Of a DNA stretch of 64,000 nucleotides, positions 4,686 through 13,489 are shown piece by piece. The position numbers were made by a program, and so were the translations under genes. How positions within the stretch are numbered: position 1 is the stretch's first letter; the number at the start of each line of letters is the position of its first letter. The notes below the pieces were generated by a model. The model was not told where the DNA came from, made no database searches, and worked only from the letters and a program-made list of their open reading frames with translations. Source of the stretch: Candidatus Gottesmanbacteria bacterium (lineage in GTDB: Bacteria > Patescibacteriota > Microgenomatia > UBA10105 > UBA927); the NCBI GenBank assembly GCA_963711735.1, contig CAVQFA010000005.1, positions 269,778 to 333,777 on the forward strand, read 5' to 3'.

Positions 4686-5318
4686 GTGAAGAAAAAAGGC
4701 AATTATATATCAGTCATGGGTACTATGGGGTGCGGTAAAACAACTGCCTCACGGCTTCTTTCCGGGTTTTTGGATTTCCGTCTGATCGAAGAAAATTTCG
4801 GTGAAAATGCATTCCTGGCAAGATTTTACCAGGATATGAAACGGTGGGCATTTCATTCACAGACTTTTTTTCTCATGGAAAAAATTTCGCAAATGATGGA
4901 AACACAACAAATACTTCAGACATCATCAGTCGTACAGGATACACCGATTATGCAGGATGTATTTTCCTATGCCAAAGCGCAGCATGTGCTTGGAAATATT
5001 GATGATGCTGAATGGCGTTTATACCAAAAAATATATAATTCTTTTGAATCCTACATCCCCAAACCGACACTCATAGTATATTTGGATACGTCACTTCCCG
5101 TTATTGTGAAACGAATAAATACGAGAGGGAGAGGATACGAAGCGAAAATTCCTGAGAGCTATCTGGAGCTTCTGGATATGCTTAACCGCCGATGGTTGTC
5201 AGACAACAAAAGTATCCCCGTTTTAACCATAACAACTGACACTTTGGATATCGTACATAGCAAAAAAGCGCAAAACATTTTCACCGAAACAGTGAAGAGT
5301 TATTTAAAAATCAAGTAG
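4686..5318 (+). CDS. Deoxynucleoside kinase (dAK/dGK/dCK family)
   Basis: P-loop ISVMGTMGCGKTT near the N-terminus and ERS-like/DRY-type motifs typical of the dNK family. The start is a GTG; an ATG lies 10 codons downstream. Confidence 0.7.
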   Translation: MKKKGNYISVMGTMGCGKTTASRLLSGFLDFRLIEENFGENAFLARFYQDMKRWAFHSQTFFLMEKISQMMETQQILQTSSVVQDTPIMQDVFSYAKAQHVLGNIDDAEWRLYQKIYNSFESYIPKPTLIVYLDTSLPVIVKRINTRGRGYEAKIPESYLELLDMLNRRWLSDNKSIPVLTITTDTLDIVHSKKAQNIFTETVKSYLKIK

Positions 5319-5334
5319 TCTATCGTAAATCTAT

Positions 5335-5976
5335 ATGGTAAACATTAAGGTGTTCTGTTGGGATTTCGACGGCACCCTGTATCACCTTACAGATGAAATA
5401 TGGCAGGCTATGTATCATGCACAATATACTGTCATTGCCAACCATACAGGCTGGTCATTTGATAGAGCCCGTCAGGAACATGAAAAAATCTATAAAATTA
5501 AATTCCAGTCGAGTCAGGAAACAACCGCATTTTTATCTGGTCTGTCTATTATCGAAACTTTGAAAGAATCTGAGCGGTATTACGACAGATCGCAATTTGT
5601 CCGGCGTGATGAAAAGCTCATCGCTCTATTTGGCTCTCTTCGGTCTTTTCGGCATATAATGGTTGTAAATGGCTGGAGGGTACAGGAGGAGCCGGTATTG
5701 GATATTCTCGGTATACCCAGGACCACATTTGAAACCTGGGTTACACCGTTTGAAACCGGTGTCCTCAAGCCCAACCCGAAACATCTTCAGGCTGTTCTGG
5801 ATTATACGCATCTTCCACCCGAGACGCATCTTGTTATAGGTGACAGGGAAACGGTTGATCTGGTACCGGCAAAGTCGCTTGGTATGAAAACATGTTGCGT
5901 CTGGCAAGATAAGACCAGTGAAGTTGCAGACATTACCTTGCCAACAGTGTATGATGTTCTGTCATTGGTAGTATAG
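5335..5976 (+). CDS. HAD-superfamily hydrolase (probable nucleotidase), tandem paralog 1
   Basis: DFDGT motif I (VFCWDFDGTLY) and C-terminal IGDRETVDLVPAKSLGMKTCCVW. Confidence 0.65.
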   Translation: MVNIKVFCWDFDGTLYHLTDEIWQAMYHAQYTVIANHTGWSFDRARQEHEKIYKIKFQSSQETTAFLSGLSIIETLKESERYYDRSQFVRRDEKLIALFGSLRSFRHIMVVNGWRVQEEPVLDILGIPRTTFETWVTPFETGVLKPNPKHLQAVLDYTHLPPETHLVIGDRETVDLVPAKSLGMKTCCVWQDKTSEVADITLPTVYDVLSLVV

Positions 5977-6010
5977 TTTTTTCGATGTTTTTTTGTAATA
6001 TAAATGACAT

Positions 6011-10815: not shown

Positions 10816-10838
10816 TATAGGGGTTGAAGGAGGGTCCT

Positions 10839-11966
10839 ATGAAAAGCAAACAATCCGTTATCGAAAACAAAATAGTCCGTCATGAAGCGCTTACTTTTGA
10901 CGATATTCTCCTTCTCCCTAACTACACGGACATTAAACGCCAGGACGTGGATTTAACGAGTGTTCTTCACCCGAGATTAATACTGAGACTTCCGATAATT
11001 TCCTCTCCCATGGATACGGTAACCGAGGCAGATATGGCAATAGCACTTGCCAGAGCCGGAGGACTTGGGGTTATACACCGGAATATGCCAATAGAAAAGC
11101 AGGCAGAAATGGTGGTACATGTCAAACAGGCAAACAGGGAAAAACCATTACTCGTTGCTGCCGCTGTCGGTGTCGGAACGGATTTCGAAGACAGGGTGAA
11201 AATTTTACTAAAAGCAAAAACTGATTGTATATGCGTTGACAGCAGCCATGGTCATTCACATTTTGTCATTGAAGCCGTGAGATATATAGGAAAGACATTT
11301 CCTGACACCGTAATTATGGCCGGGAATATCGCAACGTATGACGGAGCAAAAGCACTCATGAAAGCAGGAGCACATATACTTCGTGTCGGTATGGGACCGG
11401 GTAGTATCTGTACCACGAGGATTGTAACCGGTATGGGTGTTCCGCAGATAAGTGCATTGTCTGCAGTCGTTCGCGCTACAGACGGATCCGATGTAACGGT
11501 GGTTGCCGATGGAGGGATTAAACAGATGGGAGATATCGCCAAAGCTATTGCATTCGGAGCAAACGCAGTCATGATGGGATCCTTGTTTGCCCGTTTTGAC
11601 GAGTCTCCTGGCGAAAAAGTAGAAGTGAACGGAAAGACGTATAAAACATACAGGGGTATGGGATCTGTTTCTGCCATGAAAAAAGGAGGGGCAGAACGGT
11701 ACGGACAATCACGGAATACGGATACAAAAAAATTAATCGCAGAAGGTGTAGAAGGATTGGTTGAATATGAAGGTAGCGTGAATGATTATCTTGATCAGAT
11801 TATAGGGAGTTTACGCTCCTCATTTTATTATATGGGTGCAAAAACTATGCCTGAATATTTTGAAACTACCCGCGCAATAAAAATATCAAACGCAGGGCTT
11901 ATAGAATCCCATCCGCACAGTATCATGCTTACCGATACGGGGGGAAATTACAATATGAAAAGGTAA
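10839..11966 (+). CDS. guaB: IMP dehydrogenase, a short form without the CBS subdomain
   Basis: Active-site loop GSICTTR and the IGGG..GD motifs. RBS gaaggaggg precedes the ATG at 10839. guaA lies immediately downstream. Confidence 0.75.
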   Translation: MKSKQSVIENKIVRHEALTFDDILLLPNYTDIKRQDVDLTSVLHPRLILRLPIISSPMDTVTEADMAIALARAGGLGVIHRNMPIEKQAEMVVHVKQANREKPLLVAAAVGVGTDFEDRVKILLKAKTDCICVDSSHGHSHFVIEAVRYIGKTFPDTVIMAGNIATYDGAKALMKAGAHILRVGMGPGSICTTRIVTGMGVPQISALSAVVRATDGSDVTVVADGGIKQMGDIAKAIAFGANAVMMGSLFARFDESPGEKVEVNGKTYKTYRGMGSVSAMKKGGAERYGQSRNTDTKKLIAEGVEGLVEYEGSVNDYLDQIIGSLRSSFYYMGAKTMPEYFETTRAIKISNAGLIESHPHSIMLTDTGGNYNMKR

Positions 11967-11971
11967 ATACT

Positions 11972-13489
11972 ATGATAGTTATTATTGATTTCGGTTCCCA
12001 AACTGCTCATCTTATTTCCCGTAGACTTTCCGATATGAGTGTTGATTCCAAACTCGTGGATCCTCAGGACGCATTGAAAGAAATTACGGATAATCATGCG
12101 GAAGGAATTATTTTATCCGGAGGGCCGGCCTCTGTATTCGAATCGGGTGCTCCGACAATCGATAAATCCGTTTTCGATCTTAAAATACCGGTCCTCGGTA
12201 TCTGTTATGGATGGCAATTAATGGCGTATTTATTACAAGGACATGTAGAGGCGGGCAGAAAGGAATACGGACCGAAAAAGCTTACCATTTGTGAATTCTC
12301 CGATTTTTTTTACGGTTTACCGGATGAAACGCAGGTATTTGAATCCCATGGTACGACGGTATATGAATTACCTCCCGGTTTTGAGGTAACCGGTTCGACT
12401 GACGCTGATGCTAATGCCGCCGTCAAAAATTCCGATAAAAAATTCTTTGGTGTCCAGTTTCATCCCGAAGTCCAGCATACCCGACACGGAAAACAGATGC
12501 TAAAAAATTTTGTCACACGGATCTGTAATGTTGGAATTAAGCCGAAATCTATCGATACCGATGGTATGATTGCAGAAATTAAGGCAAAAGTCGGAAAGAG
12601 CAGAGTGATCGGTGCCTTCTCCGGAGGAACGGATTCATCGGTTGCAGGTACTCTGGTAGCCCGTGCCATCGGAAAACGATTTATCCCGGTTTACATAGAT
12701 AGCGGCCTGGTACGAGATGAGGCAACCCAGCGGGTACATACAATATTCCCTAAAATTCTTGGTGTTCCGATACGTATTGTGGACGCGAGGAAAGAATTCC
12801 TTACCGCGCTTAAAGGAGTGACGGATCCGGAGCAGAAAAGAAAGGTCATCGGAAGGATGTATATCGAACTGTTCGATAGAGTCGCAAGTGAATATCCGGA
12901 TGCCGTCTTCCTTCTTCAGGGTACGACGTATGCGGACTTTATCCATTCCAAAGGCTCCAAAAGATCAGCACTCATTAAAAGCCACCATAATGTCGGTGGG
13001 TTACCGGAAAACATGAAACTGAAACTCCTCGAACCAATCCGATATTATTACACCGATCAGGTCCGGAAAATCGGTCTCAAACTTGGTCTTCCGAAAAATA
13101 TTGTTTTCCAGCAGCCGTTCCCGGGACCGGGTCATGCAGTGCGTATAATCGGAGAGATAACGGAAATGCGTCTTTCAAAACAGAAACTCGCCGATGCTAT
13201 TGTGGTTGAAGAGTTGAAGAAAGTTGGCTGGTACGAAAAAGTTTTTCAGTGTTGGTCTGTTTTAACCGGTCTAAAAAGTACTGCAGTCAAGGGCGATGAA
13301 CGGGCATATGCGGAAGTGATTGCAGTCAGAATTATTTCGACGAAAGATCGGATGAGTGTCGATTGGGTGTATTTACCCAAGCACGTCTACGCTGCCATTT
13401 CAACCAGAATCGTAAATGAGGTTCCGGATGTATCCCGCGTCGTCTACGATATCACCACGAAACCTCCGGCAACGATGGAGTGGGAGTGA
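11972..13489 (+). CDS. guaA: GMP synthase (glutamine-hydrolysing)
   Basis: An N-terminal GATase domain, an ATP-PPase SGGTDSSV motif and a C-terminal dimerisation domain ending ...PPATMEWE. Confidence 0.9.
   Translation: MIVIIDFGSQTAHLISRRLSDMSVDSKLVDPQDALKEITDNHAEGIILSGGPASVFESGAPTIDKSVFDLKIPVLGICYGWQLMAYLLQGHVEAGRKEYGPKKLTICEFSDFFYGLPDETQVFESHGTTVYELPPGFEVTGSTDADANAAVKNSDKKFFGVQFHPEVQHTRHGKQMLKNFVTRICNVGIKPKSIDTDGMIAEIKAKVGKSRVIGAFSGGTDSSVAGTLVARAIGKRFIPVYIDSGLVRDEATQRVHTIFPKILGVPIRIVDARKEFLTALKGVTDPEQKRKVIGRMYIELFDRVASEYPDAVFLLQGTTYADFIHSKGSKRSALIKSHHNVGGLPENMKLKLLEPIRYYYTDQVRKIGLKLGLPKNIVFQQPFPGPGHAVRIIGEITEMRLSKQKLADAIVVEELKKVGWYEKVFQCWSVLTGLKSTAVKGDERAYAEVIAVRIISTKDRMSVDWVYLPKHVYAAISTRIVNEVPDVSRVVYDITTKPPATMEWE

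Follow-up and report, generated by a model that had tools for sequence, protein, structure and literature searches.

A thymidine kinase homolog without the catalytic glutamate and an adjoining undescribed P-loop protein family in a nucleotide salvage operon of Candidatus Gottesmanbacteria

In human thymidine kinase 1 (TK1), Glu98 is the proton acceptor for the 5'-OH of thymidine, and Arg60 stabilises the transition state (PMC8757434). In the Leishmania enzyme the role of proton acceptor for the 5'-OH falls to E85, which has been termed "essential for catalysis" (PMC4433323). A TK1-family homolog lacking this glutamate is described here, together with the P-loop protein encoded by the gene directly after it. 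Both genes belong to a run of 11 open reading frames (ORFs), all on the + strand, at positions 4686-13489 of a 64-kb stretch of DNA from Candidatus Gottesmanbacteria (Patescibacteria). The whole of this stretch is called the window, and all positions are given within it. The 11 same-strand genes had been pointed out in an earlier sequence-only reading of the same DNA, and their strand and coordinates were confirmed.

The two genes at the centre of the analysis are the following:

8321..8899, + strand, TK1-family thymidine kinase homolog with a rewired active site, called the variant tdk below (PF00265, 4.3e-30)
8896..9597, + strand, member of an undescribed P-loop kinase family, branch A (233 residues; its start overlaps the stop of the variant tdk)

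The products of these genes are proposed to form a coupled module that would jointly phosphorylate scavenged (deoxy)nucleosides or their monophosphates, a reading to which a probability of roughly 0.5 is assigned. Both the lineage-wide TK1 homolog without the glutamate and the near-obligate linkage that ties it to a kinase family not described before appear to be new; no description of either protein was found in the family libraries and literature searched.

Replacement of the catalytic glutamate

The variant tdk is a full-length member of its family, with a PF00265 score of 105.3 bits against a cut-off of 20.6 over residues 7-187 and the family profile matched from end to end. It matches thymidine kinases of the PDB with E values of 1e-22 to 1e-9 (2orw, E 1.6e-22). 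The sequence-only reading had noticed the motif DAIHFF by eye and suspected that the catalytic Glu was substituted. Alignment to solved thymidine kinases bears this out, since IIDAIHFF of the window stands opposite FIDEVQFF, which puts Ala in place of the catalytic Glu at residue 91 and His in place of Gln at residue 93.

A set of 120 close homologs, 67-93% identical, was screened for the DE motif. DA[VI]HF[FL] was found in 102 of them and DN[IM]NFF in 17, DE.QF in none, and the catalytic Glu is lacking in all 120. Among GTDB species representatives, DE is present in 57 of 57 thymidine kinases of other lineages (Actinomycetota, Bacilli, Mollicutes, Saccharibacteria and others), DA or DN in Gottesmanbacteria-type loci, and DS.QFF in two Roizmanbacteria. 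The loss of the glutamate is thus fixed across the Gottesmanbacteria/Roizmanbacteria lineage. A change from Glu to Ala takes a single base (GAA to GCA), as might be expected of a sequencing or assembly error or of a tdk pseudogene. However, the same class of substitution recurs in 120 of 120 independent homologs from many assemblies and in ~30 loci, in reading frames that are unbroken and strongly conserved. Sequencing error is excluded as the source of the loss, and an artefact or pseudogene of any sort has a negligible probability.

To define the remainder of the altered site, 147 members of the variant clade were compared residue by residue with 56 canonical enzymes. The D-x-R of the beta-hairpin (Asp58 and Arg60 of the human enzyme) occurs in 56 of 56 canonical enzymes and is not conserved in the 147 variant sequences, in which the aligned positions hold K/R/V/T/N and N/V/I; the alignment of this loop varies between methods, and the exact correspondence there is uncertain. 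About 12 residues downstream of the aligned positions, the variant tdk has D58-E59-R60 as part of SHDER (residues 56-60), a motif gained in the clade and found in 135 of its 147 members. In helix alpha-1 the canonical EELxRRxxR has given way to an uncharged TKLLTLFSVLS. The residues invariant in the clade are E44, H53-T54, D58-E59-R60, K86, K97, N117, K125, E127, E143 and E159. The Walker A motif GPMFAGKT and the Walker-B Asp (D90) are invariant in the 147 clade members and the 56 canonical enzymes alike, and the variant tdk retains the zinc-binding C148, C151, C183 and C186 as well as the lasso residues R160 and Y179.

These changes could mean that the variant tdk is a catalytically dead pseudoenzyme, serving as a regulatory or scaffold subunit that binds nucleoside or dTTP and leaves all catalysis to its P-loop partner. 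The general-base Glu, the canonical D-x-R and the Arg-rich helix alpha-1 are all lost, the position of the lost Glu is variously A, N or S, so that there is no fixed replacement, and the uncharged helix could have become a new protein-protein interface. The Walker A motif and Walker-B Asp are, however, invariant, and together with the newly invariant E44, D58-E59-R60, K86, K97 and K125 they look more like a site that was rewired than one in decay. The identity of 65-93% across the Gottesmanbacteria-type clade, higher than for any neighbouring gene, points to strong constraint. A pseudoenzyme is therefore considered rather unlikely. Because the Walker motifs are kept, new charged residues have become invariant and conservation is strong, the variant tdk gives the impression of a working protein, either with its active site redesigned or with an interface that is new, rather than of a gene in decay.

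A P-loop family tied to the variant tdk

The stop codon of the variant tdk and the start codon of the P-loop gene overlap as ATGA, in agreement with the translational coupling claimed in the sequence-only reading. Searches with the P-loop protein found 57 homologs, every one annotated as hypothetical. The family is rare, with 97 clusters at E <=1e-3 in a HMMER scan of 1.84 billion representative proteins. It falls into three branches, namely A (the type of the window), B, with 28-35% identity to A, and C, which carries the motifs GPSAGGKT...SDSHT...HYH...AEWSGG.N, has no Pfam match and is homologous to A by hhalign (probability 95.4%, E 1.7e-8). One to three P-loop copies directly follow the variant tdk, usually with a 4-base overlap of its stop codon.

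The linkage was assessed in ~26 non-redundant Glu-less loci with downstream sequence. A P-loop member stands directly after the variant tdk in all but two of them, L017, which has none within 5 kb of tdk, and L028, in which the copy lies upstream of the deoxynucleoside kinase (dNK) gene instead. In Roizmanbacteria with the DS-type tdk, the next gene is of branch C. True members were found within 5 kb of canonical tdk in 0 of 57 loci, and the only matches near canonical tdk are at the level of Walker A, with 13-22 bits against at least 58 bits for true members. Members of the family are also fused to each other, as two P-loop copies in protein P0191 and as branch C with branch A/B in P0219.

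The P-loop protein matched no family in Pfam, NCBIfam, PADLOC or PHROGs, the score of AAA_18 (16.9 bits) being below its cut-off. Over 62 diverse members, the conserved residues are K15, D38, H91, E111, G115, R159, R166 and N202. K15 is the Walker A lysine, D38 follows directly after strand 2 and is kept in at least 90% of these members, and E111 is Walker-B-like at the end of strand 3. Branch A has the additional motifs SDR, DGPPGHRKVHVLDG, EYAxGP, R162 and DGG. In its lid, R162xxxR166 is invariant within branch A, and R159 and R166 are family-wide. An AlphaFold2 model of the protein is confident (predicted local distance difference test, pLDDT, 92.5; predicted template modelling score, pTM, 0.89). 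Its nearest Foldseek neighbours are archaeal adenylate kinases, adenosine 5'-phosphosulfate (APS) kinase and dephospho-CoA kinase, at E ~1e-5 and a template modelling (TM) score of ~0.5; the structural neighbours also include gluconate kinase, shikimate kinase, PSTK/Kti12 and RNA kinases. Since the model is confident and every one of the closest folds belongs to a kinase of small molecules or nucleotides, the P-loop protein is predicted to share this kind of fold, without fitting into any known subfamily.

Among the features of hydroxyl-directed kinases are an Asp following strand 2 and a lid with RxxxR. The arginine-rich lid of the P-loop protein fits nucleoside monophosphate (NMP) kinases as well. 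The sequence-only reading had put the protein forward as a candidate for a missing (d)NMP kinase step, and part of this stands, in that the product of 8896-9597 is modelled as a P-loop-kinase fold with an arginine-bearing lid, as in NMP kinases, and is encoded in a salvage operon. An independent CMP, UMP or dNMP kinase, sharing the operon with tdk only as another salvage gene, is nonetheless thought unlikely, if still worth keeping in mind. None of the NMP-kinase profiles of Pfam or NCBIfam (ADK, cytidylate, thymidylate and guanylate kinase) matches the protein, and hydroxyl-directed kinases score equal or better structurally. A mere gap-filler would also leave unexplained why the family occurs only with the Glu-less tdk and never beside a canonical one. 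In profile searches against the PDB, made with branch A and with the 62 diverse members, only the Walker A region was aligned; the best match was PSTK, with E 6.5e-7 over residues 4-36. The protein did not turn out to be a shikimate or gluconate kinase either, as the sequence-only reading had considered, in that no profile match extends beyond Walker A.

A function outside nucleotide metabolism was also weighed: the protein might be zeta-toxin-like, might phosphorylate polynucleotides, RNA or sugar acids, or might be an NTPase that is no kinase. In favour of this are the gluconate, shikimate, PSTK/Kti12 and RNA kinases found among its structural neighbours, as well as sub-threshold matches of a paralog of the P-loop protein to Zeta_toxin (20.5 bits against a cut-off of 22.3) and KTI12, confined to the Walker A region. 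A distant fused member, P0271, lies beside a radical SAM gene and outside any salvage operon (L089:402-6428 and L090). There it forms a tightly overlapping four-gene operon with a 323-residue unknown protein, a 287-residue radical SAM protein and a 935-residue unknown protein. This operon may serve in defence or in the modification of nucleotides; its matches in PADLOC were at noise level only. On the other hand, P0271 is a fusion of the P-loop domain to an HD domain (PF01966, 2.9e-8), which connects the P-loop family with HD phosphohydrolases; the window cluster shows this pairing too. The place of the family in a nucleotide-kinase operon is kept across ~30 loci, with the overlap with tdk, and there is no PADLOC defence or toxin match and no antitoxin-like neighbour. 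The window protein itself matches neither Zeta_toxin (PF06414), the second family to which the sequence-only reading had looked, nor any PADLOC model. A role unrelated to nucleotides is consequently regarded as improbable. A further candidate, a KEN/HEPN nuclease, was suggested by a match of the C-terminal LRNHYHHF..LEED to the IRE1 RNase motif (E 0.33). It was rejected because Rx4-6H (RNHYHH in the window) is missing from most family members, which read LGxxYYRF.

The coupled module is inferred from the conserved translational overlap, the co-distribution, the paralog fusions and the complementary features of the two proteins, a variant tdk without its catalytic residues and homo-oligomer helix next to a partner with a full set of kinase motifs. 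In such a module, the variant tdk would contribute the ATP-binding loop, Walker-B Asp, zinc knuckle and lasso residues that it keeps, having given up the general-base Glu, the canonical D-x-R and the Arg-rich helix alpha-1 and acquired the SHDER loop. The P-loop partner, as a putative kinase of nucleosides or nucleotides, would supply the Walker A Lys, the Asp after strand 2, the Walker-B-like Glu and the lid arginines. The two would act together, probably as a complex, and the paralogous P-loop copies would supply differing substrate specificities. A more far-reaching version is offered tentatively and judged doubtful, namely that Gottesmanbacteria and Roizmanbacteria have replaced the one-protein thymidine kinase by an obligate heteromeric kinase. 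In this enzyme, a TK1-fold subunit without general base, transition-state Arg and homotetramer helix would be joined by one to three P-loop subunits that make good the lost functions in catalysis or specificity.

Patescibacteria account for much of the diversity of bacteria. As they must assemble all of their DNA and RNA from scavenged precursors, salvage kinases are at the core of their lifestyle. A lineage-wide thymidine kinase variant without a residue held to be essential for catalysis, and an unannotated kinase family tied to it, would genuinely surprise those who work on nucleotide enzymology and on Patescibacteria. The heteromeric kinase, if true, would be a new enzyme architecture for the activation of (deoxy)nucleosides in bacteria sustained wholly by scavenged nucleic acids. 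Both are small proteins that should be easy to express, which makes their substrates and complex formation directly testable. In hundreds of metagenome-assembled genomes, the results would also correct the labels that these genes have received automatically, "thymidine kinase" and "hypothetical protein".

The surrounding operon and window

The remaining genes of the operon, and the gene flanking it on the other strand, are the following:

4686..5318, + strand, deoxynucleoside kinase, dNK (PF01712, 9.4e-42)
5335..5976, + strand, HAD-IA hydrolase, extra diverged copy, pyrimidine-5'-nucleotidase-like (PF00702/PF13419; weak TIGR01993/TIGR02253)
6011..6655, + strand, HAD-IA hydrolase, conserved copy, nucleotidase-like (PF13419, 1.3e-14)
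6661..7530, + strand, HD-domain phosphohydrolase, accessory gene (PF01966, 26.5 bits against a cut-off of 22)
7644..8246, + strand, dTMP kinase of the divergent tmk1 type (PF02223, 84 bits; TIGR00041, 89.5 against a cut-off of 83.25)
9625..9870, + strand, small ORF (81 residues from GTG, 64 from ATG at 9676)
9927..10727, + strand, uridine-phosphorylase-like nucleoside phosphorylase (TIGR01718, 279.4 bits, just below the cut-off of 280.3)
10824..11966, + strand, IMP dehydrogenase, short form (PF00478, 1.7e-135, residues 22-365; TIGR01302 in two stretches)
11972..13489, + strand, GMP synthase, glutamine-hydrolysing (PF00117 and PF00958)
13571..14482, - strand, divergent guanylate-kinase-like P-loop protein with an N-terminal extension (303 residues; Walker A APTAGGKT)

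The region is an operon for nucleotide salvage and interconversion that is conserved in Candidatus Gottesmanbacteria and is nothing unusual for the phylum. Homologs of tdk and of other window proteins, where named, belong to Candidatus Gottesmanbacteria or carry a Patescibacteria or Microgenomates label. Outside the cluster, the window contains dcd, glyA, a PfkB kinase, ahcY, 5-FCL, thyA and folA, each as listed by the sequence-only reading, and a PF04008 adenosine-specific kinase. Its statement that de novo purine and pyrimidine genes are missing holds within the 64-kb window, where none was found. The life on scavenged nucleosides that it proposed fits this gene content and is an ordinary reading rather than a new one, because dependence on scavenged nucleotides is already known for the phylum. 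A 2026 preprint gives 93% of the genomes in the phylum as being without de novo nucleotide synthesis and describes a cultured representative of the Patescibacteria that feeds on host RNA (bioRxiv 10.64898/2026.06.21.733656).

Thirty related loci were reached via homologs of the P-loop protein, the HD protein and tdk. Their common architecture begins with glmS on the minus strand, followed by dNK-HAD-tmk1-(tmk2)-tdk and one to three unannotated P-loop genes, and continues as (histidine phosphatase)-(udp)-(ada, guaB, guaA)-glyA-rpsB-tsf-frr. In the window, the operon opens with dNK, which diverges from glmS on the minus strand (2786-4576) and is syntenic in nearly all related loci. The window differs in its duplicated HAD gene and in the HD gene, otherwise present only in L005, L006 and L010. 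Most Gottesmanbacteria have two thymidylate kinase paralogs ahead of tdk; tmk2 is absent and the divergent tmk1 stands alone in the window, L004, L006, L010 and L016. The PF02223 score is 190 bits for tmk2 of L002 (6786-7436) against 84 bits for the window enzyme, the Walker A of which reads GTGKET. The gene tsf is followed directly by frr, without pyrH between them, in the window (18543-19623) and in related loci. This gap was considered as a sign of a missing UMP kinase and dropped, since Saccharibacteria share the arrangement and the absence of pyrH is therefore uninformative; PyrH has been reported in a cultured Patescibacterium. EF-Ts of the window is short, with 152 residues, and matches only positions 1-76 of the 204 in the EF_TS model of Pfam. 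The G+C content of 8001-10000, which holds tdk, the P-loop gene and the small ORF, is 37.4%, against ~42% for the whole window.

Most gene identities of the sequence-only reading (dNK, HD protein, dTMP kinase, thymidine kinase, IMP dehydrogenase and GMP synthase) are supported by profile matches, and the two HAD hydrolases it called paralogous are 40% identical to each other. The single HAD protein of relatives is nearer to the second window copy, with orthologs 48-58% identical. The assignment of another gene had to be revised. The gene 9927-10727 had been read as a purine nucleoside phosphorylase, yet the DeoD models reach only 117-129 bits against ~230 (TIGR00107, 116.6 against 232), and the protein is uridine-phosphorylase-like instead. 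In L001 (Gottesmanbacteria RBG_16_52_11), its ortholog matches in two pieces at 8903-9669 with no gene called, and is probably a frameshifted pseudogene. The HD protein, for which a comparison with dNTPase HD families had been suggested, shows no close structural or sequence similarity to dNTP triphosphohydrolases of the SAMHD1/Dgt type. Its H42, H76-D77, H126-D127 and D171 are invariant, which provides the H...HD...D metal ligands of the PF01966 superfamily, and it is an accessory phosphohydrolase of YedJ/YpgQ/PDE-like fold.

Of the 64-residue ORF, the reading frame is present. Its coding status is uncertain because the ORF has no match in Pfam, NCBIfam, PADLOC or PHROGs and a single marginal relative (38% over 47 residues, E ~9e-4, on one contig that represents both L001 and L009), so that conservation is not credible. 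IMP dehydrogenase, with 380 residues, is without the CBS/Bateman regulatory insert, and relatives are similar (383 residues in L001 and L004). The product of 13571-14482 has no Pfam match. It is weakly similar (23% identity, E 3e-5) to the PF00625 guanylate kinase that L002 has in the syntenic place, and is therefore probably a guanylate kinase that has diverged very far and carries an N-terminal extension.

Several other features of the window were recorded. Genes of the mevalonate pathway at 22492-26148 include a GHMP kinase and a GHMP kinase-NUDIX fusion (23639-25156). The ORF 25549-26148 matches only the C-terminal part of mevalonate diphosphate decarboxylase, starts with TTG after a 390-base gap and may be a mis-started or split gene. 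On the minus strand, 51198-52461 holds a release-factor ORF of 234 residues with the second half of the PCRF domain and RF-1 only, directly preceded on the same strand by an ORF of 182 residues; together they may represent a frameshifted or programmed-frameshift prfB. A histidyl-tRNA-synthetase-like ORF of 308 residues (53271-54197, minus strand) has a partial catalytic core and an anticodon-binding domain, with ~1 kb free of long ORFs next to it, which may point to a split or truncated gene. Rfam places a second tRNA at 58631-58704 (29.6 bits against a threshold of 29), immediately behind tRNA-Leu(CAA) at 58537-58623; ARAGORN makes no call for it.

Comparison with described enzyme families

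The HD protein is 12-17% identical to the YedJ/YpgQ phosphohydrolases and differs from them by ~100 additional C-terminal residues with invariant motifs of its own, FPHLAW and KGK. Cyclic-nucleotide phosphodiesterases match it as well as YedJ/YpgQ do.

The P-loop protein resembles NMP kinases (archaeal AdkA, UMP/CMP kinase and thymidylate kinase) with a TM score of ~0.5 and 10-16% identity. With the hydroxyl-directed P-loop kinases (APS kinase, gluconate kinase, PSTK-Kti12 and T4 PNK), it shares the Asp after strand 2 and the RxxxR lid. However, its identity to them is 9-13%, it belongs to none of them at the profile level, and it has its own motifs DGPPGHRKVHVLDG, EYAxGP and DGG as well as an extra beta-hairpin.

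The variant tdk is a clear homolog, of the same length, of the TK1-type thymidine kinases represented by human TK1, the Thermotoga maritima enzyme (2orw) and the Ureaplasma enzyme (2b8t). It has in common with them the Walker A motif GPMFAGKT, the Walker-B Asp, the four zinc-binding Cys and the lasso Arg and Tyr. Unlike these enzymes, it has Ala, Asn or Ser in place of the catalytic Glu, a D-x-R that is not conserved and an uncharged helix alpha-1, and it has the new E44 and SHDER and the linkage to a novel P-loop gene.

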